DNA of 32,000 bases from Candidatus Electrothrix sp. GW3-4 (GCF_037902255.1 NZ_CP147990.1:2400001-2432000), one strand, 5' to 3'; numbered from the stretch's first letter, positions 4,717 through 23,878 are shown. Made by a program: numbers and translations. The notes: generated by a model from the letters alone, not told the origin.

Positions 4717-4749
4717 TGTTTCTTCACTGCTTGCGCAAGATCACATCTT

Positions 4750-7808: not shown

Positions 7809-8458
7809 TGAAAGAGGAGCTGGACATCATTTTTGCCGATCAACAGCTGGTAGTGGTCAACAAACCTGGCGGGCTCCTGGCTGTTCCCGGACGAGGGCCG
7901 GATAAACAGGACTCTGTGGTCAGCCGTTTCAAAAAGCAGTTTCCCAGGGCCATTGAGCAACCAGCGGTTCATCGTCTGGACATGGCCACCTCTGGCCTGA
8001 TGGCCTTGGCCCGGACCACAGAAGCACATCGTCATCTCAGCGGCCAGTTTTCTCAACGTCAGGTAGAGAAGATCTATATTGCCCTGCTGGCTGGGGCTGT
8101 GGCTGAAGAAAGGGGAAAAATCGAGCTGCGCTTCCGGCTGGACCCGGACAACCGCCCGTACCAGGTGTACGACCCTGTCCAGGGAAAAGTCGGGATCACC
8201 TACTGGCGGCGCCTTGCCCTCTGCGGCAGCGAGGTGCATCCACAGACCCGAATAGAGTTTCTCCCCCTGACCGGCAGAACCCACCAGCTCCGTCTCCATG
8301 CCGCCCATTCTCTGGGGCTGGGTTGCCCTATCATCGGTGACAGCCTGTACGGAACAGGGCAAAGGGGAGACCCCATGTACCTCCATGCAACCTACCTGGC
8401 CCTTAACCACCCACGCAGCAACCAACGACTGGAATTCTATTCTCCTGCCTCCTTTTGA
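7808..8458 (+). CDS. RluA-family pseudouridine synthase
   Basis: The catalytic motif HRLDMATSGLM is present, along with LVVVNKPGGL and GRTHQLRLH. The start is the ATG at 7808 (MKEELDIIFAD), not the track start at 7736. Confidence 0.9.
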   Translation: MKEELDIIFADQQLVVVNKPGGLLAVPGRGPDKQDSVVSRFKKQFPRAIEQPAVHRLDMATSGLMALARTTEAHRHLSGQFSQRQVEKIYIALLAGAVAEERGKIELRFRLDPDNRPYQVYDPVQGKVGITYWRRLALCGSEVHPQTRIEFLPLTGRTHQLRLHAAHSLGLGCPIIGDSLYGTGQRGDPMYLHATYLALNHPRSNQRLEFYSPASF

Positions 8459-8790
8459 GGAGCAGCCTTTAAAAAAGGTGGTGAACAGAAGACGCTAGCA
8501 CAGGCCGGTATAGCGGCTCGTTCCGGGCTAAGGTAGCGAGTCATCCCGATACCGAGACAAAAAAGGGTGAAGCTGAAGATCAGGAGGAGAAAAATAATGA
8601 TCGGGATCTGATCATAGCGTTTCTGCTTTGGCCTCCTTTGTCTCGTATTTCGTCTCTTGGCACCAGCAGGTTTAACAGCAGCTCCTTGAGCAGATCCTTG
8701 AGCAGGCTTTTCCGTTATCTTATCCGCAGACCTTCCACTGGCCTGCTCAGGGGGTTTCTCTTGTGTTTCTTTTTCTGTGGTCAAAACCAA
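8437..8790 (-). CDS. hypothetical single-pass membrane protein with a basic, Pro/Ala-rich N-terminus
   Basis: The 117-aa ORF begins 3 nt after the stop of the 8794-9411 gene. It has one TM segment (IIIFLLLIFSFTLFCLGIG). Its 3' end overlaps the convergent rluA-like gene by 22 nt. Confidence 0.45.
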   Translation of the reverse strand: MVLTTEKETQEKPPEQASGRSADKITEKPAQGSAQGAAVKPAGAKRRNTRQRRPKQKRYDQIPIIIFLLLIFSFTLFCLGIGMTRYLSPERAAIPACASVFCSPPFLKAAPQKEAGE

Positions 8791-8793
8791 TTA

Positions 8794-9411
8794 TTATTCT
8801 CCGCTCCCGAGGTCATCCTGCTGCGGAGGCGGCGGAGCTGTCCTGGACCCGCTGAGTTGGCGGCGCCGCTTCTCTTCATAAACAGAGAGGATAAAGAGGC
8901 AGGAATAGGGATGGGTCAACAAGGCACCGATTCCGATGGAGCTGCCAATGGAATCCAGAATAATAAGCACGGCCACCACTGCAACATGCTCGCTGACAGG
9001 TTGCTCCAGGGCCATGCGGGCAGATTCTTTCACAGCCTCAGTTAAGCCGAGTTGCTGATCGGTCATCAGGGGCAGCAGATAGACAAAGAAAAAGGTTCCG
9101 GCCAGAATAACCGCTATACCGGGTAAAATCAGCATGGCCATCCCGAGCAGGATAAGCAGCACAAAGACAATGGTAAAGCCCAACAGAGGGAAAAACAGGT
9201 CCATATGGGCAAAGAGATCCTTTACATCCGGTTTTCTGTCTTCGCGCAGGGCCAACAGCAGGGACTGCATATAGCCAGCAGAGACCACGGGCGCCAGAAA
9301 ACCAAGACTGACAACCGACACCACAATCATGACCAGGGTATTGACCAGCACCAGGGCAAAATGATGCATAAAGGCCTGCCAGGCGCGTTCAAAATGCTTT
9401 TTAAAATCCAT
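8794..9411 (-). CDS. multi-pass membrane protein of unknown function
   Basis: It has several hydrophobic helices. The likely start is MDFKKHFERAW at 9411. The C-terminal tail is Pro/Gln-rich. Confidence 0.6.
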   Translation of the reverse strand: MDFKKHFERAWQAFMHHFALVLVNTLVMIVVSVVSLGFLAPVVSAGYMQSLLLALREDRKPDVKDLFAHMDLFFPLLGFTIVFVLLILLGMAMLILPGIAVILAGTFFFVYLLPLMTDQQLGLTEAVKESARMALEQPVSEHVAVVAVLIILDSIGSSIGIGALLTHPYSCLFILSVYEEKRRRQLSGSRTAPPPPQQDDLGSGE

Positions 9412-9764
9412 ATCTCCTCCTTCTGCATGAACCAGGTTCTTTTCCCAAAGGGATCTTCTGTTACAGGAGAAGAGTAACAGCATGCAAGCCAGCTTGACAA
9501 GGAGTTAATGCGGTCTTTGGGGAAAAGGAGGGCAGAAAAGGTCAGTGACCTGTATTTCAGGAAGAATGCAGGCAGCATTCCGGATAAACAAGGAAGAGGA
9601 ACCAGCTCAGCAGGAGCTGATCATACGGTGTGTTTTACTGAAGGAAGGGTGTATGTTTTTCAGAACACAACCTTCCGACTGATTGCATCCCTCGGGGAGG
9701 GATCTTACGGATGAATTCCAGCAAGGCCGGGAAGAAGCAAGGTTCCCTCATCAGACAGATGCCC

Positions 9765-10178
9765 TTAGATCTCATCCCATGTCATAACCGGGGGTTTCTG
9801 CTTCCCGGCCCAATGACAAAGAAACTCACGGAACCGAATAATCTTACCATCCTTTACATCAAAAACATGGGTCCAGCGGTTTTCAAAAAATATCTCCGAG
9901 CCCATATCTCTTCCTGCTTCTTCGCCAAGCACAACAACGGTGTTGTCCTGATGGACAAAGTTCTTGGCATGAAAAGAGCTGAAATGCCAGGTGGAGCCCA
10001 GAATATCTAACAAATGGCGGACACCGTCTTTTCCTCGAAAGGCCTGACATTTTTCCAGGGCATCAGGCCCATTCACGACCCATTCTATCTTTTCATCACA
10101 TAACTCCAGAAAACCTTCAAAGTCCCCTGCAGTAAACTTCTTATAAACATCTTGCACAATATGAAGTGGGGATGTCAT
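9765..10178 (-). CDS. NTF2/SnoaL-like (ketosteroid-isomerase-like) family protein
   Basis: The 137-aa protein follows the pattern VYKKFTAGDFEGFLELCDEKIEW...VVVLGEE...THVFDVKDGKIIRFREF, which is typical of SnoaL_2/NTF2-like proteins. Confidence 0.7.
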   Translation of the reverse strand: MTSPLHIVQDVYKKFTAGDFEGFLELCDEKIEWVVNGPDALEKCQAFRGKDGVRHLLDILGSTWHFSSFHAKNFVHQDNTVVVLGEEAGRDMGSEIFFENRWTHVFDVKDGKIIRFREFLCHWAGKQKPPVMTWDEI

Positions 10179-10356
10179 TTTTTTCTCCAGTATACTCTAT
10201 TAGTTCACTCATCCTGAAAAACTTCACGTACAATGCGTTATCCGGCGTGCGGCTTGGTGCATACTCATCGATGGCCTGAACAGGGAGTAGTATTTTACAA
10301 TTTAATCGGCTGACAGACAAGGTCATATCAGAGGGGAGGGGGGGGCAAAAAGGGGA

Positions 10357-10518
10357 CTACTCGCCTGTGGGGAGATCCTCTTCTTCATGTTTTTCATCTG
10401 CTGGTTCTTCAAGTTGGCCTTTCTTTCGCTCCAACTTACGCAGTCTTTTTTCTTCTTTCTTTTTTTTCTTTGCGAGTTCTTTTTGGCGCTTATCAAATGA
10501 ATAGTAGTTTTTTGCCAA
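10357..10518 (-). CDS. candidate small, highly charged protein (53 aa, TTG start)
   Basis: My own translation gives AGGAG, 6 nt, then TTG at 10518, followed by AKNYYSFDKRQKELAKKKKKEEKRLRKLERKKGQLEEPADEKHEEEDLPTGE and a stop at 10357-10359. It is in a different frame from the 95-aa track ORF at 10323..10610. The sequence is low-complexity, so this call is uncertain. Confidence 0.3.
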   Translation of the reverse strand: MAKNYYSFDKRQKELAKKKKKEEKRLRKLERKKGQLEEPADEKHEEEDLPTGE

Positions 10519-10749
10519 GATATTCTCCTGAATATGAATAAAAAAGGCCCGTCACCACGGGAATTCTCGAAGCAATCTCTTGTCTTGCGACATATCGTCA
10601 CTGTTTTCAATCACAAAAACAAGAGATCTAGCCTGCCCAGAAAACGACAACCCTTTGAACAGGAAGACGACTTTTGCCCAAAGGGTTGACTTCGTTACTT
10701 TTCCTCTGCTTTCTCTTGAGAAAGGCCGGGACAGGTCAAGGCAGGAAAA

Positions 10750-10950
10750 TTACAGACCAATGACATGATCCGCAGCTGGTCCCTTGGGGCCATCAACGAT
10801 ATCAAAGCTTACTCGCTGTCCTTCCTGCAGGCTTTTGAATCCCTGGGCTTGAATAGCTGAGTGGTGAACAAAAACATCTTTGCCGCCATCCTGCTCAATA
10901 AAACCAAAGCCTTTGGAATCGTTAAACCATTTTACTGTTCCTTCTACCAT
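10750..10950 (-). CDS. cold-shock protein, CspA family
   Basis: [12 protein letters not shown] (RNP1) and VFVHHSAI (RNP2) are present. The 66-aa length is canonical. Confidence 0.95.
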
Positions 10951-11167
10951 TTTCTCATACTCCTGTATAACTTGATTTCTCTATGAAATCTTGATGTAAA
11001 GACGGTTTGCAACCTTTGCAAGCCGTTGTGCAGATCGACCATGCGTTCTGCGGATTTTCTCTTTTTTATGGACAGACCAAGACGATTCCAGGCTGTCCTT
11101 ATTTTTTGAGCACGCGCCTGTCTTTTCGTAAAAAAAACGCTGCTTTTCTTCATGAAATGGGCCTGGC

Positions 11168-11434
11168 CTATCGGCGACGAAACTTTTTCTTCTTCGTCGG
11201 TTTGGACTCGTTACAGACAAGATCCCGGTGCTTATATCTCTTTCCGTTCAGATCTTCCATTGCCTTGTGTCCTTCGCTGCGGGTTGACATCTCCACAAAG
11301 GCAAACCCCTTTGAATGGCCTGTAAACTGATCTTTCACGAGATTTGTGCTAACAACACTCCCGTATTGGCCAAAGAGGTCGGTTAATTCATTTTCCGTAA
11401 TATTATAGGGAAGGCTGCCGACAAAAAGTTTCAT
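11168..11434 (-). CDS. RRM-type RNA-binding protein
   Basis: MKLFVGSLPY (RNP2) and KGFAFVEM (RNP1) are present, followed by a short basic tail. Confidence 0.9.
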   Translation of the reverse strand: MKLFVGSLPYNITENELTDLFGQYGSVVSTNLVKDQFTGHSKGFAFVEMSTRSEGHKAMEDLNGKRYKHRDLVCNESKPTKKKKFRRR

Positions 11435-11651
11435 ATTGCTTCTCCTGAAAAGATGATCTTATTAAAAACAACCTGATCTTTACGAAGAGGGTTGCGAGAG
11501 AGGGTAAGTATGCCCCAGGCAATACTTACGAAGGCCATCTATAGATATAGTTAAAGCAGAAACTTTAAAGGCACCAGGAATGGGCTGGTGTCACCATGAT
11601 AACGGCGACGAAAAGAAAATGCTAAAATTTATCGATTTATAGTTGGGCAGT

Positions 11652-11679
11652 ATAATACTCTAGTTAGAATTAATTGCAA
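11652..11679 (-). promoter_or_regulatory. candidate sigma70-type promoter for the RRM gene (TTGCAA-N16-TATTAT)
   Basis: On the minus strand, TTGCAA lies at 11679-11674 and TATTAT at 11657-11652. This would give a 5' leader of about 210 nt. Confidence 0.3.
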
Positions 11680-11741
11680 CAAATAAATACAAGCACGGCT
11701 GCTTCAGCGCAATTTTCCATCATTTTGGCGCGACCCCCTCT

Positions 11742-11800
11742 TTACTTCCGGCAGCTCATGTCGTCGCCTTGTTTGAGAAAATGGATATCAGAGACGGTTG
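11742..11800 (-). pseudogene. 3'-terminal remnant of a paralogue of the 13091-13693 gene
   Basis: The minus strand encodes ...VSDIHFLKQGDDMSCRK*. Compare ...VADMHFLKQGDDMSCQE* at the end of the 13091 gene. The two copies share 47 of 54 nt. The remnant's frame has an upstream stop and no ATG. Confidence 0.55.
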
Positions 11801-11900
11801 AGGTTGTTGAGGTTTTGAACAGTACATATAATAGCGAAAAGGACATAACAGCATTGAGTAATAGCATAATAACTCTTTTCCCTTCTTCATAAAAAATTTT

Positions 11901-12476
11901 TTACTCTTCAGGGTTGTGGTTACTCCCCTGCGGCCAATGACGGCACTCCAGTCCGTAACAGACATGGGCAATGAACCGGCCGTGCAGACATTCGGCATGG
12001 GTGATGATGCCTTCCTTACGCAGGCCCAGGCGTTGACAGACGGCCCGGCTTTGATGATTTTCCTCTGCAACCCGGATCTCGATCTTTTCCAGGCCAAGCT
12101 GGGCAAAGGCGAAGTTAATGAGGTAACGGCAGGTCCGGGTCATAATCCCCTTGCCCTGCTGCTGCTCTGCCAGCCAATAGCCGATCTCTGCCTTTTGCAG
12201 GAAGAGATCAATGGAGTTAAAGGCAGCAGAGCCCACCAGCTCTCCCTGATAGAGGATGAAACAGACCATGCCCTTCATGTCCGCATAGCGATGCAGGGAG
12301 GTGGTGACAAAATGGAGATAGTCCTCAAGCTGGGTGGTCTTCTCCGGCCAGGAGAGCCATTGGGAGAGATAGGCCCGATGTTTATCGACCAGGGCGTAGA
12401 CCTGCGGGGCCTGGATGTGATTGCAGAGCGAGAGCTGGATCTCCTGGTCAACGGTCAGGATAAACACCGTGCTCAC
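11901..12476 (-). CDS. GNAT-family N-acetyltransferase (RimJ/RimL-like)
   Basis: The protein has IGYWLAEQQQGKGIMTRTCRYLINFAF (acetyl-CoA motif A, Q/RxxGxG/A) and LEKIEIRVAEENHQSRAVCQRLGLRKEG. Confidence 0.85.
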   Translation of the reverse strand: MSTVFILTVDQEIQLSLCNHIQAPQVYALVDKHRAYLSQWLSWPEKTTQLEDYLHFVTTSLHRYADMKGMVCFILYQGELVGSAAFNSIDLFLQKAEIGYWLAEQQQGKGIMTRTCRYLINFAFAQLGLEKIEIRVAEENHQSRAVCQRLGLRKEGIITHAECLHGRFIAHVCYGLECRHWPQGSNHNPEE

Positions 12477-12503
12477 AAGAAAAGAAAGAAGATGAGGTCT
12501 TCA

Positions 12504-13001
12504 TCAGGCTTTTGCCTTCATGACCGGCTTTTGAATTATCAGGTTGTTGGGATAAAAGACCTCATTCCCCTCTGCATCCTTGATTTGAATATGGAACAAG
12601 GTCATATCGATAATCTCACCGGAGACGGAGCTATCGCCATCTATTATCTTAACTTTATGCCCTATCCGGTAGGGGAACGAAAAGAAGATAATGATCCCGG
12701 AGGTGATATTGCTCAGCACGGACCAGGAGGCGAAGAGGGCGACACCAACAACGGCAAAAAAGGAGGAGGTAAAGATTAATACGCCTCGTATGTCGAATCC
12801 CCAGATAAGGGCAATAACGACAAATAAGACTGAAAAGAGCAGAAAAACAAAGAACTTCTTAATATAGATGATTCTTTTTTCAAGAAATCTCTGCCGGGCC
12901 CCATACCTTGCTATAATGGGGGCAATCATTGCCATAATGACAAAGTAAGAGACCAGCGACAGGACGGAGAGCAGGACTTGCAATGAGAGCAGGGTATTCA
13001 T
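12504..13001 (-). CDS. small mechanosensitive-channel (MscS) family protein
   Basis: Three TM helices are followed by SNITSGIIIFFSFPYRIGHKVKI...GEIIDMTLFHIQIKD..G..VFYPNN, which is typical of the MscS beta domain. The gene is visibly more AT-rich than its neighbours. Confidence 0.8.
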   Translation of the reverse strand: MNTLLSLQVLLSVLSLVSYFVIMAMIAPIIARYGARQRFLEKRIIYIKKFFVFLLFSVLFVVIALIWGFDIRGVLIFTSSFFAVVGVALFASWSVLSNITSGIIIFFSFPYRIGHKVKIIDGDSSVSGEIIDMTLFHIQIKDAEGNEVFYPNNLIIQKPVMKAKA

Positions 13002-13090
13002 AATTTCACTTTATTCTCGCGGGATAAGAACATCACTCATCGTTATCCCCTGCATTGTATATCCCAGGTGTTTGCTTGCCTGCATCTTTT

Positions 13091-13693
13091 TTACTCCTGG
13101 CAGCTCATGTCGTCGCCCTGCTTGAGAAAATGCATATCAGCCACAGCTACTTGAAAAAGAGGATAGGGCCAATGCTCAAAGGCCTGCTTGCGGGCCGGGA
13201 CCGGGCAGCTTGATGTCTTGTAGAGGTCTTCCTTGCCCAGGGGCGTGATGGCCAGGTGATAGCGCAGATCCCTGGAAAAAGGGTTATGGACGTTGAGCAA
13301 CATGCCCGGGCTGATCTATGCATCATCGGGCTGGCTGAACTTGAAAACAAGGGTTCGTTCCGGGTGGATGTTTTGCGGGACATGCCTGAGGTCCTGCGGG
13401 GCGTCTTTGCCTTCGCTTGCCTCGATAAAGACCTCTTCGCCGGGAAAGATAAGGAGGAAGGCTGGCTGGACCACGGGTGGGTCCAGTTCGGAGCTATAGT
13501 TGAAGAAGGTACCGTCTTTTTGCTTGAGTCGGAAGCTGTGGTTCTTTCTGCATGGAGCGGTTTTGCAGTATTCTTCGAGGGATTTTGGTGGGTTGTTGTC
13601 AGGTTGGTCAGGGGAAACGGCAAAGGCGGGAAGAGTTAAAAAGGAAAAGATCAGGCTGGCTGATATTGCGATGATTCGTTTCTTTGTTTTCAT
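13091..13693 (-). pseudogene. secreted hypothetical protein gene interrupted by an in-frame TAG
   Basis: The track ORFs 13316..13693 (signal peptide MKTKKRIIAISASLIFSFLTLPAFA) and 13091..13303 are in the same frame. They are separated only by ...PDDA-TAG-ISPG-M... The TAG is at 13318-13316. Confidence 0.5.
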
Positions 13694-13755
13694 CGTGAAG
13701 TTAATTCCTTATATTATTTCTCATGCCCAGGCTTTGCCGAGGCACAAGTAAAACT

Positions 13756-14793
13756 TTATTTTTTCCATTCAGATGTAACTTCTTCAAGTTTTACTCCTCG
13801 CCATTTATCTTGCCATATATCAAAGTATGGAATATCGCTTGAGGATGGCTCAGGAGCACAAGGAGTTACATACACAACAGATGGCATAACCGTAGCTTCT
13901 CCAATGAGCAAAGCTTCTCCTGCTTCAAGCGAAGGTAGTCCTTCTGTTATATTGCCAAGAGTATCAGGTAACAATCTTCTGACATAATTCTGATCATCGG
14001 GGTTTGTCAGTCTCATTGCCAGGAAGTTACTGCATTGTGAAAAGATTGTTTCAGAAATTTCTGATGGACGTTGGCTAGCGATAAGTAAACTCACACCATA
14101 TTTCCTTCCTTCCTTAGCAATTCTTTCAATGGCCGATAACGAAGCTTTATAACGAGCAAGCCCGCTTCTTGGAGCATACTTATGAGCTTCTTCGTAGACC
14201 AAAAGGAAAGGTGTATCGCATGTTTTCTTTGAACGTCTAAAGTAATATCCATAGTCAAACAATAGCCGGGTAATCAAAGAAACTGTGATACTCAATACTT
14301 CAAAAGGGATACCACTGAGATCAAGTATTGTTATATTAGACTCTTTATCACGTTTGAACCCCATTAATTGATTCATCACGTCTTCAAGTGATAAATCTGA
14401 CGACTCTTCTCCGAAAATAAACTGAAGGCGTGGATTCTTAATTTTAGTTTCTAACCTTCGCACAAATTTATCTATACTTCCATCAGCATATGACCCTTTA
14501 TTTATTCCAATTTTGTTTTTTGTAGGGGCAGCCTTTTGTCCAGGAGCAAAATTAAATGATGATTTGCAGTAATGTTTGAGTTTGTCTTCTTCACTTTCAA
14601 AAGTAAAATCTTTTTGCTCAGTATCAATTATATGCAACGAATTATCCGTATCTCTTGTTTCCCTTGTTAGATTACTAAGACAATTAATAAAATCTTGAAT
14701 ATTATATTTCAGAGGACTATCAAAATAAATTCTATCAGCATCTGGATTATCCTTTTTCTTACATAGCGTGACGATAGTCCTTAGCAACTATAA
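13756..14793 (-). pseudogene. herA: HerA/DUF87-type ATPase, C-terminal half, separated from the N-terminal half by an IS insertion
   Basis: It has a Walker B-like motif (PFLLVYEEAHKYAP), EGRKYGVSLLIASQRPSEISETI and FLAMRLTNPDDQ, all typical of HerA/FtsK-like DUF87 ATPases. The open frame runs directly up to the IS end at 14794. Confidence 0.8.
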
Positions 14794-14911
14794 TGGACCC
14801 CTATTCTTGGACAGCTATTTAAGGTAGATTTTTTTCTAAAAATGCTGAATGTATTTTGGTGCGCTTGGCACGAGTCCGAAATTCATACAGCCACTACCGG
14901 AGAATCTACGC

Positions 14912-15190
14912 ATGTCACGTAAAAGAAGAGTCCACTCAGCTGCATTTAAAGGAAAAGTTGCACTTGAAGCACTGAAAGAACTAAAGCCGATTAATGTACT
15001 GGCCTCCCAGTATGAGATTCAGCCAAACCAGATTAGCACCTGGAAAAAGCAGCTAAAAGAAGGAGTAACCGAAATATTCAGCCGAAAACGCGGTAAAGCA
15101 AAAGATGATTCCCGCAAGGCTGAAAAACGCTTATACGAAGAAATCGGTCGTCTGAAAATGGAGCTGGACTGGCTTAAAAAAAAAGTCTGA
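14912..15190 (+). CDS. IS3-family transposase OrfA (HTH plus leucine zipper)
   Basis: MSRKRRVHSAAFKGKVALEALKE...NQISTWKKQLKEG...EIGRLKMELDWLKKK is the typical IS3 OrfA pattern. It ends in the A9 run (15176-15184). Confidence 0.85.
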   Translation: MSRKRRVHSAAFKGKVALEALKELKPINVLASQYEIQPNQISTWKKQLKEGVTEIFSRKRGKAKDDSRKAEKRLYEEIGRLKMELDWLKKKV

Positions 15191-16019
15191 GCCCTACTCG
15201 GATCCCCTTGATTTAATTGATTCTCAGCATAGGTCGATCAGCATCCAGAGGCAATGTGAGCTGCTTGGCATCAGTCGATCCCGCTATTACTACAAGCCAG
15301 CGGTTGAGAGCGAACTGAACCTCAAATTGATGCGAATTATCGATGAGATCTACACCGACTGTCCTTTTTACGGAAGCAGACGGATGGTCATCGAGCTGGA
15401 ACGGCGTGCTTTTCATGTTAACAGAAAACGGGTTCAACGGTTGATGCGCCTAATGGGGCTTGAGGCTATTTACCCGAAACCGAAACTAACTCATCGGAAT
15501 ATTGAACACAAAGTTTATCCATACCTTTTGAGGAACATCTTGATTGATCGTCCCAATCAGGTTTGGAGCACTGATATCACGTATATTCCGATGCAGAGCG
15601 GTTTCATGTATCTGACGGTAATTATTGACTGGTACAGCCGATACATCCTCAGTTGGCGTATATCCAATACGATGGATAACGATTTTTGTGTCGAAGCTCT
15701 TGATGAAGCATTAACTCATGGATTACCCGATATTTTTAATACAGATCAGGGAGTGCAATTCACAAGCAAGCAGTTTACACAACGCCTGACAGATGTTGAT
15801 GTAAAAATCAGCATGGACGGCAAGGGCCGAGCACTGGATAATATTTTTGTCGAGCGTCTTTGGCGTACAGTAAAGTACGAAAATATCTACCTGAAAGACT
15901 ATCGAAATGGCAATGAGTTATACCACGGTCTGGAAGAGTATTTTTCGTTTTATAACACTCGACGTCCTCATCAGTCTTTGGGGTACAGATCTCCTGAAGA
16001 TATTCATTATTGCTCATGA
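15183..16019 (+). CDS. IS3-family transposase OrfB (DDE/rve domain), with no independent start expected
   Basis: The frame is open from 15156. It encodes ...SISIQRQCELLGISRSRYYYKP...PFYGSRRM...WSTDITYI...NTDQGVQFTS...ERLWRTVKYE (the D, D, E regions). This frame is +1 relative to orfA. Confidence 0.85.
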   Translation, partial: KSEPYSDPLDLIDSQHRSISIQRQCELLGISRSRYYYKPAVESELNLKLMRIIDEIYTDCPFYGSRRMVIELERRAFHVNRKRVQRLMRLMGLEAIYPKPKLTHRNIEHKVYPYLLRNILIDRPNQVWSTDITYIPMQSGFMYLTVIIDWYSRYILSWRISNTMDNDFCVEALDEALTHGLPDIFNTDQGVQFTSKQFTQRLTDVDVKISMDGKGRALDNIFVERLWRTVKYENIYLKDYRNGNELYHGLEEYFSFYNTRRPHQSLGYRSPEDIHYCS

Positions 16020-16125
16020 GATACAGTCAAACAAATATAGGAGGAAATCACCAGATAAGAGAGTTTGTTGTTAGCCCGAAATCTATCTTAAATTATGCTA
16101 AATTTTGTGTTGACTATGGGGTCCA

Positions 16126-16858
16126 CTTTAAACGATTCCTGATTATAATTATTCCTGTCACCTGACTCTAAAAAGATCTCTTCCATTTCCTCTTCATTCA
16201 GAAGCCAATACGGAAGCACTAAATCATCTACCCCAAGAACATTTGCATCAGGGAATGCTGATTGATATTCTGAGTGAATGTCAAATATCACAATGTGTGA
16301 ATTATTCAGGCCATCATAATCGCCATTCTTTGCAGCAATTGCCTCCTGCAGAATTGTAGCAACTGTATGTGATTTTCCTGATCCTGTCGCTCCAACTATC
16401 GCAATATGTTTATTGAAAAATCTATCCCCATGAACAGGTACCTTTATTTCTCTTTGCCGACTTAACACGGAGAAACAAAATCTTTTATCTTCTTCAAACG
16501 CATTGCTGTAAATAGCCTTTACTTCATCTTCAGTAGCAGGCAAAACCTTTTTGGGTGGTATAGCTAATTCATCACCACCTCTTTTAAACTCCCCGCCCTG
16601 AAGCGTCCCTAGTGGGTATGCCTCAATGATATAAACCCGCTTAAAATTGCCATCAGGTTTTTCTTTTACCTCAATTGCAAAACTCTCAATAATACAGATC
16701 AAAGAGACATTCTCATTGTCAGAAATTTTCAAATACGAACCAACACGAAGGCTTTCTTCAGCAAGCTTAAAAGTAGTAAGATCGTCGACCGATATTTTAA
16801 CACGGTTAGGATAAACAGCGATTACTTCGGCATTTACTTTTTGTTCATCTGCTTCCAC
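16126..16858 (-). pseudogene. herA: HerA/DUF87-type ATPase, N-terminal half (barrel domain plus Walker A)
   Basis: The N-terminal beta-barrel-like region (VIAVYPNRVKISV...VGSYLKISD) is followed by Walker A (HIAIVGATGSGKSHTV). After ...NNYNQESFK the frame runs into the IS inverted repeat, and the last 7-8 track residues are IS-encoded. Confidence 0.8.
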
Positions 16859-16869
16859 TATTCAGCCCT

Positions 16870-18108
16870 CTATACTATATCATTAATCATTGTAGGAGAT
16901 GTTACAGGAATACAAACCTGCTTTATCTCCTCTTCTATAACCAAGGGTTTATCAATAAAAAACTGGTAAACCGACCGTGGTTGCTTTAGCGAAGTGATAC
17001 AGTTACGTAACTCATCTTCACTATTAAGAAATCTTATTGATAATTTATTATTCCTAGTCTGTTGCTTATTAATTGTAGAAAAACAAAACCTTGCTCCCTG
17101 AAAAGGGTATCCATCACAAAAACAGCAACCTTCTCTATGTAAATCCTCTTTAATTTTCACTAGTCTTTCCTGATTTATTTTATTAAGAAAAATATACGGA
17201 GCATAACGTTCTTCATCTGGTTTACGTGTAAATTTATGACTACTCCACTTATCACGGATTCTATTCAAGGTTTGCATAACATCTACATCAGAAGAAATTT
17301 CAGGAACGTCAATAATAAAAAATCTTGCTTTAGGATCAACATTTCTTTTACTGAAATATTTTAACCTCATATCTTTACAATAGGCCTTCTGATTTTTTTC
17401 CCGAAGAAGCCATGCATTATATACTGCATGCTTCGGTTTTATTTTCTGTAAAAAATCATTCTTCGTAATTGTTCGATCTTCAATTTTCTTATTGCTGGCA
17501 AGCCTTGAAATCAAAGTAAGAGATGAAGGATATATGTATTCTTCAGCTTCGAGTTGCGTCACGCTTAACGTTGAAGCTAACTTTTCTATCACTATTCTTT
17601 TATGTTCTTTATATTCAGAGCATAATTCCAAAGAGAATTGAGAAGCGAATCCTTTCAAATCATCATCTGTTGCTCCAACCTCATCTTGTATATTGATATG
17701 CCTGAAAGACTCTTTTTCCGAATTATCCTTAACTTTTTCTTTTCGTACCAATATAGATTTGATAACCTCAAGAGTTATGCTATCGTCCGAATAATTGGTT
17801 TCCTTAAAATAACCATAAAGAAAATATCGCTTATTCACCCTCTCCTCTAGCTTCAACCCAATATAATTTTTAATCATTGGCAAAATTGCATCTCTCAAAA
17901 CAGAGCCTGTCAACTTCTTTCCTGCATAGTATTTACATTGAAAATATAAAGACAAATCAGCTAAGTGCAGATCAAAGTCTTCAGTGCCTTCTACTTTACA
18001 TAATGACGTACAATCTGATCCCAATATTTTATTTATAGTCGCATCAAATTGAAAAATATAACCACGAATAGTCGCTGAAGCTTCTCTGTCTTTATTTGTT
18101 TTTGTCAT
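16870..18108 (-). CDS. Cap4-like / DUF4297-like nuclease-domain protein, the HerA partner
   Basis: The N-terminus has the GYIFQ ... VEGTEDFD ... FQCKYY pattern. This matches the G-[FY]-x-[FY]-Q / ExxED / QxK PD-(D/E)xK signature of DUF4297/Cap4-type nucleases. It lies 11 nt upstream of herA on the same strand. I do not recognise the C-terminal part of about 270 aa. Confidence 0.65.
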   Translation of the reverse strand: MTKTNKDREASATIRGYIFQFDATINKILGSDCTSLCKVEGTEDFDLHLADLSLYFQCKYYAGKKLTGSVLRDAILPMIKNYIGLKLEERVNKRYFLYGYFKETNYSDDSITLEVIKSILVRKEKVKDNSEKESFRHINIQDEVGATDDDLKGFASQFSLELCSEYKEHKRIVIEKLASTLSVTQLEAEEYIYPSSLTLISRLASNKKIEDRTITKNDFLQKIKPKHAVYNAWLLREKNQKAYCKDMRLKYFSKRNVDPKARFFIIDVPEISSDVDVMQTLNRIRDKWSSHKFTRKPDEERYAPYIFLNKINQERLVKIKEDLHREGCCFCDGYPFQGARFCFSTINKQQTRNNKLSIRFLNSEDELRNCITSLKQPRSVYQFFIDKPLVIEEEIKQVCIPVTSPTMINDIV

Positions 18109-18139
18109 TTCTTGAAATAATTTTTTAATTATCCAAAAC

Positions 18140-18168
18140 TTGATACTAAGTTAACCGAAATATCTCAA
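18140..18168 (-). promoter_or_regulatory. candidate promoter of the nuclease-herA operon (TTGAGA-N17-TATCAA)
   Basis: On the minus strand the -35-like element is at 18168-18163 and the -10-like element at 18145-18140, about 30 nt upstream of the ATG at 18108. The background is AT-rich, so chance matches are likely. Confidence 0.25.
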
Positions 18169-18278
18169 AGTTATTTTTTTTGTCGTCTAACAAATATATC
18201 AAGACAAGGAGCACGAAGAAAACCAACGCCTCTCCACACTCCCCATCTCACCGGGCACGCGATTGCCACGCACCCGGT

Positions 18279-18309
18279 AAAAAAATACCTCCTGCTCCCC
18301 CAGGAGCAG
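18279..18309 (-). terminator. candidate intrinsic terminator after the 18316-18714 gene
   Basis: On the minus strand the stem is CTGCTCC-tggg-GGAGCAG (18309-18292), followed by gaggta and T7 (18285-18279). The 6-nt spacer before the T-run is not ideal. Confidence 0.4.
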
Positions 18310-18315
18310 ACTCAC

Positions 18316-18714
18316 TCACGCCTCTTCATCCTCCTTCCTCTTCCCCTTCTTCCGCTCACTGGCCCGCGTCCCGCCGACCATATCATACTCCGTGGAGTCC
18401 GCGCCAAAAACACCCTTCACCGTTGACCGCGATCGGACAATATAGTCACTCAGATCTTCAGCCAGTTCACCCTTCTCGTTCACCAACCGGGTCTTATCGG
18501 CATTCACGGAATCAATTTCACGGACCTTTGCCTCCAGCGCATTAATTTTTGTTGCCATCACGTCGGCGGAAATGGCATCCGGCAGCCCGTCTCCTATTTT
18601 CTCCAATGCCTCTTTCACCTGATGAGCCTCTTTAAGCAATTTGGGCACACTTCCTGTCAACCTGATGACCTTCTTTGATTCTGCGCACAGGCCCGAACAA
18701 AAAAAAGAGGCCAT
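18316..18714 (-). CDS. hypothetical coiled-coil protein with a basic/acidic tail
   Basis: The 132-aa ORF has heptad-like content (LLKEAHQVKEALEKI..., KINALEAKVREIDSVNADKTRLVNEKGELAEDL). The start is uncertain because the first codons overlap a repeat unit. Confidence 0.5.
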   Translation of the reverse strand: MASFFCSGLCAESKKVIRLTGSVPKLLKEAHQVKEALEKIGDGLPDAISADVMATKINALEAKVREIDSVNADKTRLVNEKGELAEDLSDYIVRSRSTVKGVFGADSTEYDMVGGTRASERKKGKRKEDEEA

Positions 18715-18927
18715 ATTTTTTAAAATAGTCGTTGTCCTTTTCTTTAAAGAGGCCCTTCTTTTAAAAAAAGCCCCCTCTATTTTTAAAGAGAAGCCCTCCT
18801 CTTTAAAAAAGAAGACCTACATTTTAAAAAGAGGCCACTCATTTTTTAAATTGGACCGCCCCTCTCGAAAAAGAAAGGCGTCTTTTTTTCAATTAGAGCT
18901 CTCTATTTTTAAAAAGATCGTCTTCTC
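18699..18927. repeat. array of about 11 degenerate 16-26-bp units (T-run, A-run, then a G/C-rich core ending CTC)
   Basis: Reading the plus strand, the units are ...AAAAAAAAGAGGCCAT / ATTTTTTAAAATAGTCGTTGTCC / TTTTCTTTAAAGAGGCCCTTC / TTTTAAAAAAAGCCCCCTC / TATTTTTAAAGAGAAGCCCTCCTC / TTTAAAAAAGAAGACCTAC / ATTTTAAAAAGAGGCCACTC / ATTTTTTAAATTGGACCGCCCCTCTC / GAAAAAGAAAGGCGTC / TTTTTTTCAATTAGAGCTCTC / TATTTTTAAAAAGATCGTCTTCTC. Confidence 0.8.
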
Positions 18928-18995
18928 TGATTGCTCGCTATAGCCCTTGGCAAGAAATACCCTTGTGTTACCATAGAAATATCCTCTGCGCAACG

Positions 18996-19035
18996 AGGTA
19001 CATATACCTAATTTTTCCTAGGTATATATACCTAG
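18996..19035. promoter_or_regulatory. two adjacent palindromic operator-like sites (AGGTAyATATACCT)
   Basis: AGGTACATATACCT lies at 18996-19009. A perfect 18-bp palindrome, CTAGGTATATATACCTAG, lies at 19018-19035. The centres are about 24 bp apart. Confidence 0.5.
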
Positions 19036-19280
19036 ACCAAGAAATCTCCTTGCCGGAGAAGAGGATTGCGGCCTCGGCCCCTTTGGGCCAGGAAAAAGAG
19101 GCAGGAATGGAGGCCAAAAAAATCACCAAGGATTCTATCGAAAAAGAGAAAAGAACCGCTGTGGGCAACCAGGGGGAGAAAAAGAAGACTTGCCCAGAGC
19201 TTTGTTAGCGGGTATTGCTTTAACAAGATCGCCAAGTCCCGGGCCAATAAGAAGAAGACAGAAGAGAGAGATAAGCAAGC

Positions 19281-19811
19281 ATGCAAGCAATGATAAACAC
19301 CCCACCATATACCTGCGGCATCCTGACCCTGAGCGATAAAGGCGCCAAGGGCGAACGGGAAGACACCTCCGGCCCCCTGCTCAAGCAGCTCCTGACCGCA
19401 CAGGGCTTCCAGGTAAAGGCCTATCAAATCATTCCTGATCAGCAACTCCTGATAGAGGCCTTCCTGATCAAGTGGGTGGATGAAAAGGGGATCGATTTGA
19501 TCGTCACCACCGGCGGAACCGGGGTTTCACCGAGCGATCGGACCCCGGAGGCCACCCGTCAGATCATTGACCTGGAAATCCCCGGCATTGCCGAGGCCAT
19601 GCGTCAAGCAAGCCTGGCCAAGACACCGCAGGCCATCTGGTCACGGGGTATTGCTGGCATTCGGAAGAAATCCCTGATTATTAATCTGCCAGGGAGTGAG
19701 CGGGGGGCAAAAGAGAATATCGAGGCGGTTCTGCCCGCCCTTGCGCACGGTTTGTACAAGATCAAGGGCGGGACAGCGGATTGCGGGGAGAAAAGGGAGG
19801 GAAAGGATTAA
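19281..19811 (+). CDS. moaB: molybdenum cofactor biosynthesis protein, MoaB/MogA family
   Basis: GILTLSDKG...DLIVTTGGTGVSPSDRTPEAT...INLPGSERGAKE is the canonical MoaB/Mog pattern. Confidence 0.85.
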   Translation: MQAMINTPPYTCGILTLSDKGAKGEREDTSGPLLKQLLTAQGFQVKAYQIIPDQQLLIEAFLIKWVDEKGIDLIVTTGGTGVSPSDRTPEATRQIIDLEIPGIAEAMRQASLAKTPQAIWSRGIAGIRKKSLIINLPGSERGAKENIEAVLPALAHGLYKIKGGTADCGEKREGKD

Positions 19812-20878
19812 TTGTCCCCGAGTCCGTTAATCACAACCTGGGGTTCTCCTTCCTTGGCTGCCAGCACCTCACCGATCAGGAAGGGTTCTTCCCCCAGGGC
19901 CCTGAAATGCTGCATCACCGAGTCAGCATCGTCAGCTTTCACCACGGCCATCATCCCGATCCCCATATTAAAGGTCCGGTACATCTCGGCCTCCGGGATA
20001 GCCCCCTTTTCCTGGAGAAAGGCAAAGATCAGCGGCTTGTCCCAACTGTCTTTCTCAATCACGGCCCGGCAGCCCTTGGGCAGGACCCGGGGGATGTTAT
20101 CAATAAAGCCGCCACCGGTGTTATGGACTAAGCTGTGGACAGGATAACGATGCAAGACCCCCAGCACACTCTGGACGTAGATCCGGGTCGGCTTAATCAG
20201 CTCCTCGCCAATGGTGCAGCCCAGCTCCGCCACCTGATCATCCACGCTCAGGCCCAGGTCCTCAAAGATAATCTTGCGGACCAGGGAAAAGCCATTGGAA
20301 TGGAGGCCGGATGAGGCAAGACCGATAATCTTATTGCCCACCCGCACATCACTGCCATCAACAATCTTGTCGCGCTCAGCAATACCCACGGAAAAGCCTG
20401 CCAGATCATAATCACCGGGTTGATAGAGCCCTGGCATCTCGGCTGTCTCACCCCCGATCAGGGAACACTTGGCCTGCTTACAGCCCTCGGCGATCCCCTT
20501 GACCACGTCGGTGGCCTCATCAAGATCAAGGGAGGAGCAGGAAAAATAATCAAGAAAGAACAGAGGCTTTGCCCCGCTGACAATGATATCGTTGACACAC
20601 ATGGCCACCAAATCAATACCGATGGTGTCGTGTTTGTTGCAAAGTTGGGCAATTTTTAGTTTAGTGCCAACACCGTCTGTCGAGGCGATGAGTACAGGAT
20701 CTTGACAGTTGGCATTACCAATGCTGAACAGGCCGGAAAATCCACCGATATCATCAATAACAGTACGACTATGGGTGGCAGAGACGATATCTTTAATACG
20801 AGAGACAAAGGCGTTGCCCTTATCGATATCAACCCCGGCCTCACTATATTTTGATGCTGCTGTTTCGGATGCTGTCAT
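19808..20878 (-). CDS. purM: phosphoribosylformylglycinamidine cyclo-ligase (AIR synthetase)
   Basis: YSEAGVDIDKGN...IGGFSGLF...STDGVGTKLKIA...GGETAEMPG is colinear with PurM. Its stop overlaps the convergent moaB stop. Confidence 0.95.
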   Translation of the reverse strand: MTASETAASKYSEAGVDIDKGNAFVSRIKDIVSATHSRTVIDDIGGFSGLFSIGNANCQDPVLIASTDGVGTKLKIAQLCNKHDTIGIDLVAMCVNDIIVSGAKPLFFLDYFSCSSLDLDEATDVVKGIAEGCKQAKCSLIGGETAEMPGLYQPGDYDLAGFSVGIAERDKIVDGSDVRVGNKIIGLASSGLHSNGFSLVRKIIFEDLGLSVDDQVAELGCTIGEELIKPTRIYVQSVLGVLHRYPVHSLVHNTGGGFIDNIPRVLPKGCRAVIEKDSWDKPLIFAFLQEKGAIPEAEMYRTFNMGIGMMAVVKADDADSVMQHFRALGEEPFLIGEVLAAKEGEPQVVINGLGDN

Positions 20879-21068
20879 TGTTTTATCTATGCATGAAGTT
20901 GAAAGTAGTCCCGGAACAATATCTGGTTGTCAGATCAGAAACTTCTTCAGTTGTTCAGCAGTCCGGGCTGCCGGATGTTTCGAGTATATTACTTTTTTCA
21001 TGTTGCTTGTCAATATCTTTGTATGATGATTGCAACAGTGGATTCCATTTGGTATAGGTGAGTTGCCC

Positions 21069-21269
21069 ATGAAGACACTTGTTAGCCTGATCGGTCTGGT
21101 TCTGATCCTTGAAGGACTGCCCTATGTCGTTTCTCCAGAGGCCATGCAGCGCTGGCTTAAACAGCTCACAGAGATGCCTCCAGGGGCCCTGCGGGTGGCG
21201 GGCGTCATGGCCTTGCTCCTTGGTTTTTTGCTCTGCTATATCGGCCAGCGGAGCGGCCTGCTGGACTGA
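21069..21269 (+). CDS. DUF2065-like small membrane protein
   Basis: MKTLVSLIGLVLILEGLPYVVSPEAMQRWL...LRVAGVMALLLGFLL. The start is taken at the internal ATG at 21069. Confidence 0.6.
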   Translation: MKTLVSLIGLVLILEGLPYVVSPEAMQRWLKQLTEMPPGALRVAGVMALLLGFLLCYIGQRSGLLD

Positions 21270-21350
21270 AGACAGACGGATCTTTTTATGAATTGACGAT
21301 AACTCCACACGCGGATAAAAGGGTCCTGGCCCTCCAGCTGAGGTGAATGT

Positions 21351-22733
21351 ATGGAAAGAACAGCAAAACGGGAAATGATCGGCTTTGAAGGCAAGGTGCT
21401 GCTTGACACCCTCCGCCGTCTCCACCGCAAAGGGGCCACGGAGAACCTGCTTAAGCTGATCCTGAAAACCCATCCTGCCGACCTGGCCTGGGTCTTCCGT
21501 TCCCTCCCTCCAGCTGACCGCAAAAAGCTCTTTGAAATCATTGCCAACACCGAGCTGGTGGCCGACTTCTTCAGTGAGCTGGACGATGCCATCATTGTGG
21601 AACTGGCAGAAGACCTTACCCCGATCTTTCTTGCCGATGTTATCAGCAAGATGGCCCCTGATGATGCGGCTGACCTGTTGGACATCATCGCCGATGAGCT
21701 GGCTACCGATGTGCGAACATACATGGAACGGCATGACCGCGACGAACTTGAAGAACTGCTCAAGTATGATCCGGAAACAGCCGGTGGCATCATGTCCCCG
21801 GACTTCATGTACCTGGATGAAGAGCTGACCGTGGAAGAGGCCATCAAAAAGGTCCAGAAGCGGAGTGAAGATAAGGAGATGGTCTTTTATCTCTATATCA
21901 CCCACGGTGATGGGCACCTGACCGGGGTCCTCTCCCTCAGAGAGCTGCTCCTCCATCCCATGCACCGCCAGCTGAAAAATATCATGAATCATCCGGTGAT
22001 CTCGGTGACCACGGATATGGATCAGGGCGAGGTCGCCCATATCGTCTCCCAATATAACCTATTGGCGATCCCGGTGGTGGATGCCACCTTTAAGCTCATC
22101 GGTATTATCACTGTGGATGATGTTATTGACGTTATCCGGGAAGAGGCCACAGAAGACTTTCTCCAGATGGCCGGAGCAGGCAAGGACAATGAGATCCTGC
22201 TCAAGCCCCTGCACCAGAAGATCATCCTCCGCGCGCCCTGGCTCTTTGCCTCCTGGATCGGCGGGATAACAGCCATGTTCATCATTAACGGCTTCCAGCA
22301 TGAGTTGCAGAAGGTCCTGGCCCTGGCCTCCTTTATCCCCATCATCGCCGGTATGGGCGGCAATATCGCCACCCAATCCAGTACCATTGTGGTGCGGGGA
22401 ATGGCCACCGGTCGGGTCAATATGCCCCAGTTCTTTCAGATTGTCGGGCGGGAAACCCTGGTCGGGATTGTTCTCGGTTTTATCTTCGGTATCCTCCTGG
22501 GCGTGACCGCCTCGTTCAAATATTCCGCCTCTGCCTATCTCGGTGTGGTGGTGGGGATCTCGGTCTGCTCTGTTATGATCATGGCGGCCAGCCTGGGCAC
22601 GATCATCCCCATGTTGCTTAAACGCTTTCATATTGATGCGGCCATTGCCACTGGCCCCTTTATCACCACCTCCATCGATGTTCTCGGTATCAGTCTCTAC
22701 TTTTCCGTTGCAAAATATATGCTGAAGATCTGA
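21351..22733 (+). CDS. mgtE: magnesium transporter MgtE
   Basis: The protein has an MgtE N-domain, a CBS pair (VISVTTDMDQGEVAHIVSQYNLLAIPVVD) and a TM domain with the PIIAGMGGNIATQSSTIVVRG signature. Confidence 0.92.
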   Translation: MERTAKREMIGFEGKVLLDTLRRLHRKGATENLLKLILKTHPADLAWVFRSLPPADRKKLFEIIANTELVADFFSELDDAIIVELAEDLTPIFLADVISKMAPDDAADLLDIIADELATDVRTYMERHDRDELEELLKYDPETAGGIMSPDFMYLDEELTVEEAIKKVQKRSEDKEMVFYLYITHGDGHLTGVLSLRELLLHPMHRQLKNIMNHPVISVTTDMDQGEVAHIVSQYNLLAIPVVDATFKLIGIITVDDVIDVIREEATEDFLQMAGAGKDNEILLKPLHQKIILRAPWLFASWIGGITAMFIINGFQHELQKVLALASFIPIIAGMGGNIATQSSTIVVRGMATGRVNMPQFFQIVGRETLVGIVLGFIFGILLGVTASFKYSASAYLGVVVGISVCSVMIMAASLGTIIPMLLKRFHIDAAIATGPFITTSIDVLGISLYFSVAKYMLKI

Positions 22734-22735
22734 CC

Positions 22736-23854
22736 ATGCGCTCTTTTCGTTCTTCTTTCCAGGGCAAGAACCCCTTTGTCCTGTCCCTGCTTGTTGTTGC
22801 GGTTCTCTATCTCCTCTTTCACACCCTGTATCCGGAACTCGGTCGGCATGATCATAATGCCGAACCCAAACCGATCACAGCCCGGGGGGATCTGGCAGAT
22901 GACGAAAAGAACACCATTGCCGTATTCCGGGAGGTCTCGCCCTCAGTGGTCTACATCACCACCATTGAGCTGCAACGCAATCTTTTCACCCTCAACGTCT
23001 ACGAGATCCCCAAGGGCACCGGCTCCGGTTTTATCTGGGATAAAGAAGGCCGGATTGTGACGAATTACCATGTTATTGCCGATGCCAGTCGCATTGAGGT
23101 GACCCTGGCTGATCATAGCACCTGGAAAGCGGCCCTGGTCGGGGCTGCGCCGGACCGTGATCTGGCCGTGCTCCAGATCACTGCCCCCAGGGACAAACTG
23201 CGCCCCATCATGGTCGGTGAATCCCAAGACCTCTTAGTGGGCCAGAAGGTCTTTGCCATCGGCAATCCCTTTGGCCTGGATCAGACCCTGACCACCGGGG
23301 TGGTCAGCGCCCTGGGCCGGGAAATCAAATCCGTGACCAACCGCATCATCCACAATGTCATCCAGACCGATGCGGCCATTAACCCGGGCAACTCCGGCGG
23401 CCCCCTCTTAGACAGCGCCGGTCGCCTGATCGGGGTCAACACCATGATCTACAGCCCCTCCGGGGCAAACTCCGGGGTCGGCTTTGCCGTGCCGGTCCAT
23501 GAGGTCAATCGAGTAGTGCCCCAGATTATCCGCCACGGTAAGATGTTCCGGCCCGGCCTGGGAATCAGCGTTGCCCCGCAAAGCGTGGTCCGGGAGCTGA
23601 ATCTGGAAGGCATTCTGATCCTCAACGTGGCAGCAGGGTCCTCAGCAGAAAAAGCTGGCCTGCGGGGCACCAAACAGGTCTGGGGCGGCCTGATCCTGGG
23701 AGATATCATCCTGGGGATCAACGGGGTTCGGCTCAAAGACTATAACCAGTTACGGGATGAGGTGGAGAAACACCAGGTCGGAGAGACAGTGACCCTGACC
23801 CTGCTGCGGGATAATCACCAGATTGAGATTTCAGTCCCCCTTGAAGCAATCTGA
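22736..23854 (+). CDS. HtrA/DegP-like S1C serine protease with one PDZ domain
   Basis: There is an N-terminal TM/signal segment. The catalytic regions are TNYHVI (His), DLAVLQI (Asp) and GNSGGPLLD (Ser). A PDZ-like C-terminus follows (GDIILGINGVRL). Confidence 0.88.
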   Translation: MRSFRSSFQGKNPFVLSLLVVAVLYLLFHTLYPELGRHDHNAEPKPITARGDLADDEKNTIAVFREVSPSVVYITTIELQRNLFTLNVYEIPKGTGSGFIWDKEGRIVTNYHVIADASRIEVTLADHSTWKAALVGAAPDRDLAVLQITAPRDKLRPIMVGESQDLLVGQKVFAIGNPFGLDQTLTTGVVSALGREIKSVTNRIIHNVIQTDAAINPGNSGGPLLDSAGRLIGVNTMIYSPSGANSGVGFAVPVHEVNRVVPQIIRHGKMFRPGLGISVAPQSVVRELNLEGILILNVAAGSSAEKAGLRGTKQVWGGLILGDIILGINGVRLKDYNQLRDEVEKHQVGETVTLTLLRDNHQIEISVPLEAI

Positions 23855-23878
23855 GGAAACCACACCGGCACAATCATC

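Follow-up and report, generated by a model that had tools for sequence, protein, structure and literature searches.

A 32,000-nucleotide stretch of DNA from Candidatus Electrothrix sp. GW3-4 (NZ_CP147990.1:2400001-2432000), here called the window and numbered from its first letter, carries on its minus strand a segment (~13750 to 18285) that is almost certainly a horizontally acquired two-gene DUF4297-HerA anti-phage cassette of a Candidatus Electrothrix-like cable bacterium. Its first gene encodes an intact 412-amino-acid (aa) DUF4297 effector; the second, herA, encodes an ATPase and is interrupted after codon 242 by an IS3-family insertion sequence (IS). The DUF4297-HerA system has already been characterized, and the locus is a divergent, IS-inactivated copy in which nothing departs from the published architecture. 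A first-pass annotation of the window had proposed a DUF4297/Cap4-like nuclease plus HerA ATPase module of the anti-phage type, inactivated by an IS, and our analysis bears out this call.

The base composition of the cassette is foreign to its surroundings and supports horizontal acquisition. Without the IS, the cassette has a G+C content of 35.3%, compared to 50-52% in the flanks (50.4% on the left, 1-13755, and 51.8% on the right, 18109-32000), which is near the one third versus more than half that had been estimated by eye. The IS itself stands at 42.2%, and the nearest homologous cassette is likewise AT-rich with respect to its own flanks. The two genes are co-oriented and lie 11 nt apart, as first described, in an operon arrangement in which the DUF4297 stop codon is followed by the GTG start codon of herA.

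The DUF4297 nuclease protein

The 412-aa protein matched the NCBIfam model NF042945 ('DUF4297 family anti-phage-associated protein'), a curated equivalog with a cut-off of 300 bits, at 349.8 bits over model positions 1-400 of 400. The PADLOC DUF4297 model PDLC02187 was matched at 3.6e-92 (positions 2-404 of 404), and residues 7-411 align at 9e-39 to 8xav_G, the DUF4297 subunit of a solved defense complex in the PDB. The AlphaFold2 (AF2) model of the protein has a predicted local distance difference test score (pLDDT) of 88.5. When it was submitted to Foldseek, the solved DUF4297 structures ranked first, followed at greater distance by Avs3 (8dgc_A, 1.3e-5), Hachiman HamA (8zue), LmuA (9ux7 and 9nxx) and Acinetobacter Cap4 (6vm6, 6wan and 6wam, from 3e-4 to 2e-3). 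The TM-scores for Avs3 and Cap4 are low because these are whole-chain alignments with a single matching domain. According to the model, the N-terminal domain (roughly residues 1-230) is a Cap4-like PD-(D/E)xK nuclease fold.

In the alignment to the solved E. coli protein (8xav_G), the predicted catalytic residues D44, Q57 and K59 occupy the positions of D40, Q53 and K55. Together with E40, E43 and D46, they are invariant across an alignment of 31 homologues. A D40A/Q53A/K55A mutant of the solved protein lost both nuclease activity and defense (PMC11291478). Profile matches, fold and invariant residues thus uphold the DUF4297/Cap4-like N-terminus that had been read from the PD-(D/E)xK pattern.

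The remaining ~180 aa, roughly residues 230-412, correspond to the known C-terminal domain (CTD) that serves in oligomerization and HerA docking, the docking being a prediction for this protein. In the solved structures this domain forms two stacked hexameric DUF4297 layers and touches the HAS barrel of HerA (PMC11291478); Rish et al. call it the UFO oligomerization domain (bioRxiv 10.1101/2024.10.24.620088). The alignment to 8xav_G extends through the CTD to residue 411, and superposition of the CTD from the AF2 model on 8xav_M, a chain that comprises the CTD only, gave a TM-score of 0.91 (normalized to target length) and a root-mean-square deviation of 2.0 Å. Residues K287-W288-S289, R301-Y302-x-P304, D332-G333, F341, Q350, R359 and P401 of this domain are invariant in the alignment of 31 homologues. 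The first-pass annotation had regarded the C-terminal part as possibly novel, and this idea was rejected, the domain being the CTD/UFO domain seen in the cryo-EM structures. A cysteine cluster taken as a feature of the same domain did not hold up either: in homologues, the places of C328, C329, C331 and C342 are taken by V, I, L, S or other residues, C244 being the sole invariant cysteine, so that a metal-binding site was rejected and the cluster is lineage-specific.

An IS3-family element in herA

Both halves of the interrupted gene were recognized as HerA. On the PADLOC model PDLC02188 the 5' half gave 2.5e-115 (positions 3-243 of 578) and the 3' half 1.8e-138 (positions 237-578). On the NCBIfam model NF042944 ('HerA_antiphage_2') they cover positions 1-236 and 230-576 of 576, and the 5' half matches Pfam DUF87 at 2.4e-26. 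As encoded, the fragments reach 386.3 and 463.1 bits on NF042944, both under its cut-off of 850. The HerA/DUF87 ATPase with N-terminal barrel, GATGSGKS, VYEEAH and SQRPSEIS that had been described is therefore one herA gene, of the DUF4297-associated type, in two halves. The 5' open reading frame (ORF), with the HAS barrel and the Walker A motif (residues 156-163 in the numbering of the 585-aa repaired protein), runs 14 further codons into the IS before a stop at 16088. The 3' fragment contributes the helix-bundle insertion, the Walker B motif (residues 439-444), the arginine finger R470/K471 and the C-terminal hook.

Removal of 14789-16130 together with one AAC copy of the target-site duplication yields a continuous 585-aa HerA ORF, in which NYNQES is joined to LLRTIV and ...GTCCTTAGCAAC is directly followed by GATTCCTGATT... 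at the restored junction. The repaired HerA scores 866.1 bits on NF042944 and thus passes the cut-off only after in-silico repair. It aligns over its full length to PDB 8xau_A at 4.9e-187, with 55% identity over aligned residues. Its residues K162, E441/E442 and R470/K471 align with K157, the Walker A lysine, E426/E427, the Walker B pair, and the trans-acting R455/K456 of 8XAU (PMC11291478). Such a repair depends on the exact IS boundaries. The coordinates first given for the element, 14794-16125, are 5 nt off at each end, and excision of this stretch in silico left herA frameshifted. This excision was rejected in favor of 14789-16130 plus one target-duplication copy.

HerA ATPases of SIR2-HerA defense and of HerA-NurA DNA-end resection share the DUF87 core, and the PDB matches of the repaired HerA do include SIR2-HerA-type and archaeal HerA chains, at far weaker scores. 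The probability that the pair belongs to either of these systems instead of DUF4297-HerA is nevertheless virtually nil. The repaired protein obtained 168.1 bits on the SIR2-type model NF042943 (cut-off 800), versus 866 bits on NF042944, and on the archaeal repair models it reached 131.3 bits (NF040937, cut-off 800) and 99.4 bits (NF040819, cut-off 970). Moreover, its partner is a DUF4297 protein, neither SIR2 nor NurA, and no NurA is present. Scores below cut-off and the DUF4297 partner refute both identities.

The split of herA by an IS, as first described, was confirmed and assigned to an IS3-family element of 1342 bp between codons 242 and 243. OrfB matches NF033516 (transpos_IS3) at 257.9 bits (cut-off 160; positions 137-368 of 369), OrfA covers positions 2-81 of the same model, and the transposase gives the Pfam matches rve, HTH_21 and HTH_Tnp_1. 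With the IS3 family the element shares an orfA with a helix-turn-helix (HTH) and an orfB with the rve DDE integrase core, imperfect terminal inverted repeats, a length of ~1.3 kb and a 3-bp target duplication; target duplications in this family are short, 3-5 bp. Two other copies of the IS, in unrelated assemblies and 95.7% and 99.2% identical, align starting exactly at 14789 while their flanks differ. Since two copies in different flanks start there, the left IS boundary is independently confirmed.

One feature differs from the classical members of the family, in which OrfAB is made by programmed -1 ribosomal frameshifting: here the frame of orfB is +1 with respect to that of orfA, with a run of nine A residues (A9) at the junction. 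Deletion of one A (A8) gives a 389-aa OrfAB fusion, whereas A10 leads to a stop and a -1 frameshift would not yield this fusion. The reading frames therefore suggest that OrfAB may be produced by transcriptional slippage rather than by -1 ribosomal frameshifting. The A9 run is kept in both of the other IS copies. A combined-term search on transposases in cable bacteria retrieved no matching paper from the literature library searched.

The insertion looks recent: the target duplication is perfect, neither half of herA shows any other lesion, and the gene for the nuclease is whole. In two independent Logan runs of this strain, the assembled contigs match the window at 100% identity and break off 29 bp inside the right end of the IS. 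Such ends are the expected behavior of a short-read assembler at a repeat, and the insertion is not peculiar to one assembly. The features of the locus are listed in Table 1.

Table 1 Features of the interrupted DUF4297-HerA cassette and its leader (positions in the window).
Feature	Position	Strand	Basis or remark
412-aa ORF, DUF4297 effector gene, intact	16870-18108	-	NF042945, PDLC02187, 8xav_G
Codons 44-59 with predicted catalytic D44, Q57, K59	17932-17979	-	alignment to 8xav_G
11-nt spacer, DUF4297 stop codon to herA GTG start; operon arrangement	16859-16869	-	
256-aa ORF carrying GATGSGKS	16088-16858	-	begins 11 nt downstream of 412-aa ORF
herA 5' fragment, codons 1-242 plus two target-site-duplication bases (16131-16132): HAS barrel, Walker A GATGSGKS	16131-16858	-	
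343-aa ORF carrying VYEEAH and SQRPSEIS	13756-14787	-	
herA 3' fragment, codons 243-585 plus one target-site-duplication base (14788)	13756-14788	-	
IS3-family insertion sequence, 1342 bp	14789-16130	+	inverted repeats, target duplication, transposase models
Target-site duplication AAC, left copy	14786-14788		
Target-site duplication AAC, right copy	16131-16133		
IS terminal inverted repeats, imperfect, 13 nt, TATAATGGACCCC and GGGGTCCACTTTA	14789-14801, 16118-16130		
Transposase ORF pair between ATPase fragments	14849-15190, 15327-16019	+	
orfA	14849-15190	+	
orfB	ends at 16019	+	
A9 run at orfA/orfB junction	15176-15184		
AT-rich leader, probable cassette promoter region	18109-18285	-	sequence inspection
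Promoter-like site	18202-18173	-	consensus match only
Terminator-like hairpin of neighboring 132-aa gene, upstream limit of leader	18310-18291	-	consensus match only

Comparison with solved complexes and predicted loss of defense

The complex described by An et al. (Cell Res 2024; PDB 8XAU-8XAY and 8ZGI; PMC11291478) is encoded by the same gene pair in identical order. Both proteins align with it over their full length and share its domain architecture, i.e., a Cap4-like nuclease domain followed by the CTD in DUF4297, and a HAS barrel, RecA-like core, helix bundle with insertion and C-terminal hook in HerA. The nuclease D/Q/K residues, the Walker A and B motifs and the arginine finger are likewise shared. 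In comparison to this E. coli-expressed pair, HerA is 55% and DUF4297 only 28% identical over aligned residues, herA is interrupted by an IS, the HerA residues R284 and K287 are not positionally conserved and the host is a cable bacterium of the Desulfobulbaceae. Two further sets of solved HerA-DUF4297 complexes, 9C1M/9C1N/9C5X (Rish et al.) and 8ZIQ/8ZIR/8ZIT ('abortosome'), represent the same type of system. Their HerA subunits are matched over the full length at 2e-130 and 2.7e-124, and their DUF4297 subunits at 6e-14 and 1.9e-8 by single sequence or 6.7e-32 and 1.1e-27 by profile; these nuclease proteins are more distant from the locus than the 8XAV pair.

Identity with Cap4, an effector of CBASS, was considered and rejected. 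Pfam gave no sequence-level match to Cap4, Avs3, HamA or LmuA, and the PDB profile search returned DUF4297 chains only. The C-terminal domain matches the DUF4297 CTD, the locus has neither a SAVED/CARF sensor domain nor a CD-NTase partner, and the only neighboring gene is herA. The two proteins also differ in their activation, which depends on a nucleotide signal for Cap4 and on HerA-driven assembly for DUF4297.

In the solved homologues, 12 DUF4297 and 6 HerA subunits form a complex of ~1 MDa, in which DUF4297 is stacked as two rings on the HerA hexamer and its C-terminal domain contacts the N-terminal barrel of HerA (PMC11291478). Assembly turns HerA from a split spiral into a planar, ATPase-active ring that threads double-stranded DNA (dsDNA), and brings the upper-layer Cap4-like PD-(D/E)xK domains together as dimers, which act as a dsDNA nuclease without sequence specificity (PMC11291478). 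Nuclease and ATPase activities are both required for defense, which proceeds by destruction of phage and host DNA, i.e., abortive infection (PMC11291478). In the absence of HerA, the nuclease is ~300-fold less active (PMC11291478) and DUF4297 merely nicks plasmid DNA (bioRxiv 10.1101/2024.10.24.620088). By analogy, the same stoichiometry, activities and abortive-infection outcome would be expected of an intact form of the present cassette.

We propose that the two-gene cassette entered the cable bacterium by horizontal transfer and that the IS3-family element then inserted after herA codon 242. The insertion leaves the HAS barrel and Walker A motif (residues 1-242) on one fragment and the helix bundle, Walker B motif, arginine finger and hook (residues 243-585) on the other, so that no competent HerA hexamer would be expected to form and defense would be lost. 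As the nuclease and the ATPase both depend on assembly of the 12:6 complex, the defense function at the interrupted locus is predicted to be lost. The Walker A, Walker B and arginine-finger motifs themselves are conserved, but they do not lie on one uninterrupted HerA chain.

Several observations weigh against this interpretation. A Pfam-A search with the 412-aa protein returned 0 families at E <= 0.1, and the precomputed Pfam assignment is empty ('-') for all 65 DUF4297 homologues. Because Pfam-A gave no match, the DUF4297 label is founded on the fold and on profiles from NCBIfam, PADLOC and the PDB instead of a Pfam model; annotation pipelines that use Pfam only would overlook the nuclease gene. 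In the insertion subdomain of HerA, each of the two DNA-contacting residues of the solved protein, R284 and K287, has a T opposite it in the alignment, with arginines in neighboring positions. The cassette lies outside any defense island, as PADLOC gave 0 matches among nine flanking ORFs and the Pfam-assignable neighbors are housekeeping genes. Finally, the loss of function is argued from homologues, and part of the population may carry an intact allele, assembled contigs being what was compared.

The last point leads to the reading that the locus is still functional, either through HerA fragments that reassemble as a split ATPase or through a subpopulation with an uninterrupted allele, the IS then switching off, reversibly or heterogeneously, an abortive-infection module that is toxic to its own cell. 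We consider this highly unlikely. It is true that neither half of herA contains a stop or a frameshift, that the 3' fragment starts at a TTG which is codon 243 itself, and that the nuclease gene is undamaged and retains every invariant residue; the perfect target duplication, and thus the recent insertion, also speaks for it. However, the break parts Walker A from the Walker B and arginine-finger region (residues 439-471) inside one RecA-like core, and the TTG has no obvious ribosome-binding site ahead of it. Furthermore, three runs of the same strain agree with the window here. Two of the three contigs end inside the IS and the third before the junction, and in none is the intact junction found, which would read ...CCTTAGCAAC followed by GATTCCTG.... 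No intact allele at least 90% identical exists among 5.8 billion protein clusters or the JGI metagenomes. A more specific version, in which the IS would be a selected, possibly reversible off-switch for the self-toxic nuclease within the filament, or the HerA fragments and DUF4297 a working split system, appears similarly improbable. In the multicellular filament of a cable bacterium, the suicide of one cell would cut the electron-conducting chain.

The intact DUF4297 gene might also have been retained for a HerA-independent role, as a low-activity nickase or as a toxin restrained by the N-terminal barrel fragment of HerA. The ORF is indeed undamaged, lone DUF4297 from published homologues oligomerizes and keeps weak nicking or nuclease activity in vitro, and the 256-aa N-terminal fragment retains the HAS barrel, which touches the DUF4297 CTD in the solved complex. 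Yet a recent insertion predicts an undamaged DUF4297 gene equally well, and no solo DUF4297 was seen, herA lying directly downstream in every homologous locus that extends far enough. Such a role is extremely unlikely, and we favor a cassette whose defense function was lost upon insertion of the IS. The scientific weight of the locus is small, as it adds one more divergent, IS-inactivated instance of a published system. It indicates that cable bacteria, here relatives of Candidatus Electrothrix, gain standard mobile defense cassettes, which are then lost through insertion sequences of the bacteria themselves.

Homologous loci and genomic neighborhood

The closest homologous pair, on JGI metagenome contigs (P0129 and P0001), is intact and consists of a 412-aa and a 585-aa protein with an 11-nt spacer. 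It is 61% identical to the present locus in DUF4297, 84% in HerA and 74% in nucleotide sequence over the cassette. The nuclease-then-HerA order noted in the first-pass annotation recurs in the homologous pairs, with spacers of 10-12 nt. HerA changes far more slowly than its nuclease partner, with 84% versus 61% identity to the closest pair and 55% versus 28% to the solved pair. HerA homologues at E <= 1e-50 number in the thousands; a word-seeded search for DUF4297 homologues found only 65.

Genomic context was sampled at four homologous loci. Two of them lie in defense islands, one adjoins an integrase and one stands alone, a sample that carries no enrichment statistic but is consistent with a mobile defense cassette. 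The island of the closest pair (locus coordinates 1-21758) comprises SNF2/DUF4391 and a type III restriction-modification methylase and Res subunit, then DUF4297-HerA, and continues with a Metallophos plus AAA_23 (SbcCD-like) pair and ZorA-like, EH_Signature and SNF2 (Zorya) genes. The second homologous pair adjoins Hachiman genes, and the third is solitary. At the remaining locus, a DUF4297 homologue adjoins a tyrosine integrase; its contig ends directly after the gene, leaving HerA beyond view. Twenty plasmids carry distant homologues of less than 60% identity, already labeled 'DUF4297 family anti-phage-associated protein' in RefSeq. No relatives were found in IMG/VR or in GenBank phage records.

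A search for an uninterrupted copy in related strains returned none in the collections searched. In the protein collection (5.8 billion clusters), the best HerA is 84% identical, and the JGI metagenome scan gave only relatives of 60-62% identity. The best DUF4297 relatives are 64% identical, excluding a 98%-identical fragment from the same strain with four indels. Exact-protein look-ups returned the same strain only, in contigs ending in the IS. The Logan contig from SRR28154590 shows four single gaps and no mismatches against window 16352-19706. These gaps, which cut the DUF4297 ORF into pieces of 246 aa and 180 aa, are most likely assembly indel errors and not a second decayed allele.

The genes flanking the cassette are of the housekeeping kind, i.e., panC, panD, mogA, purM, mgtE and genes for an aminotransferase, a pseudouridine synthase, a GNAT protein, a small MscS-like protein, and cold-shock and RRM proteins. 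In agreement with the first-pass annotation, neither an integrase nor a long direct repeat was found around the islet and no tRNA gene in the window; an Rfam scan of the window gave no family at the gathering score. The purM gene adjoining the islet shares 90% identity with its counterpart in Candidatus Electrothrix laxa, and the next-best matches are from Electronema and Desulfobulbaceae, which places the window in a cable bacterium. Synteny with E. laxa (OW818652.1), the closest reference genome, runs from window position 29066 down to 19177 and ends just upstream of mogA. Window 1-19300 has no similarity to the retrieved E. laxa locus, tblastx included, so that everything left of 19177, beyond the cassette alone, is absent from that locus. 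At a point matching window ~23800-23821, E. laxa has an extra 1.7 kb. The E. laxa locus positions for the synteny end and this extra segment are given as 5259-7015 and 11700.

Three repeats were noted outside the cassette. An intergenic sequence of ~51-55 nt (TTTACTYCYGGCAGCTCATGTCGTCGCC...GAGAAAATGSATATCAG) occurs twice with 90% identity, at 11741-11791 and 13090-13140. One copy lies downstream of the GNAT gene and the other between the lipoprotein-like and MscS-like genes; a small repeat element is one possible identity, and a regulatory or terminator motif common to both sites is another. A degenerate tandem array at 18746-18850 (loosely 18700-18920) consists of ~4-5 units of 20-22 nt with the consensus AAAGAGGCCCTTCTTTTAAA and internal inverted symmetry. 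It lies just upstream of an ORF on the minus strand (18316-18714) whose 132-aa, coiled-coil-like product matched nothing in Pfam or PADLOC. The third, a well-conserved tandem repeat at 29753-29947, can be described as a 23-nt unit in 6.9 copies (88% matches) or a 69-nt unit in 2.8 copies and falls within a further 132-aa ORF (29556-29954).

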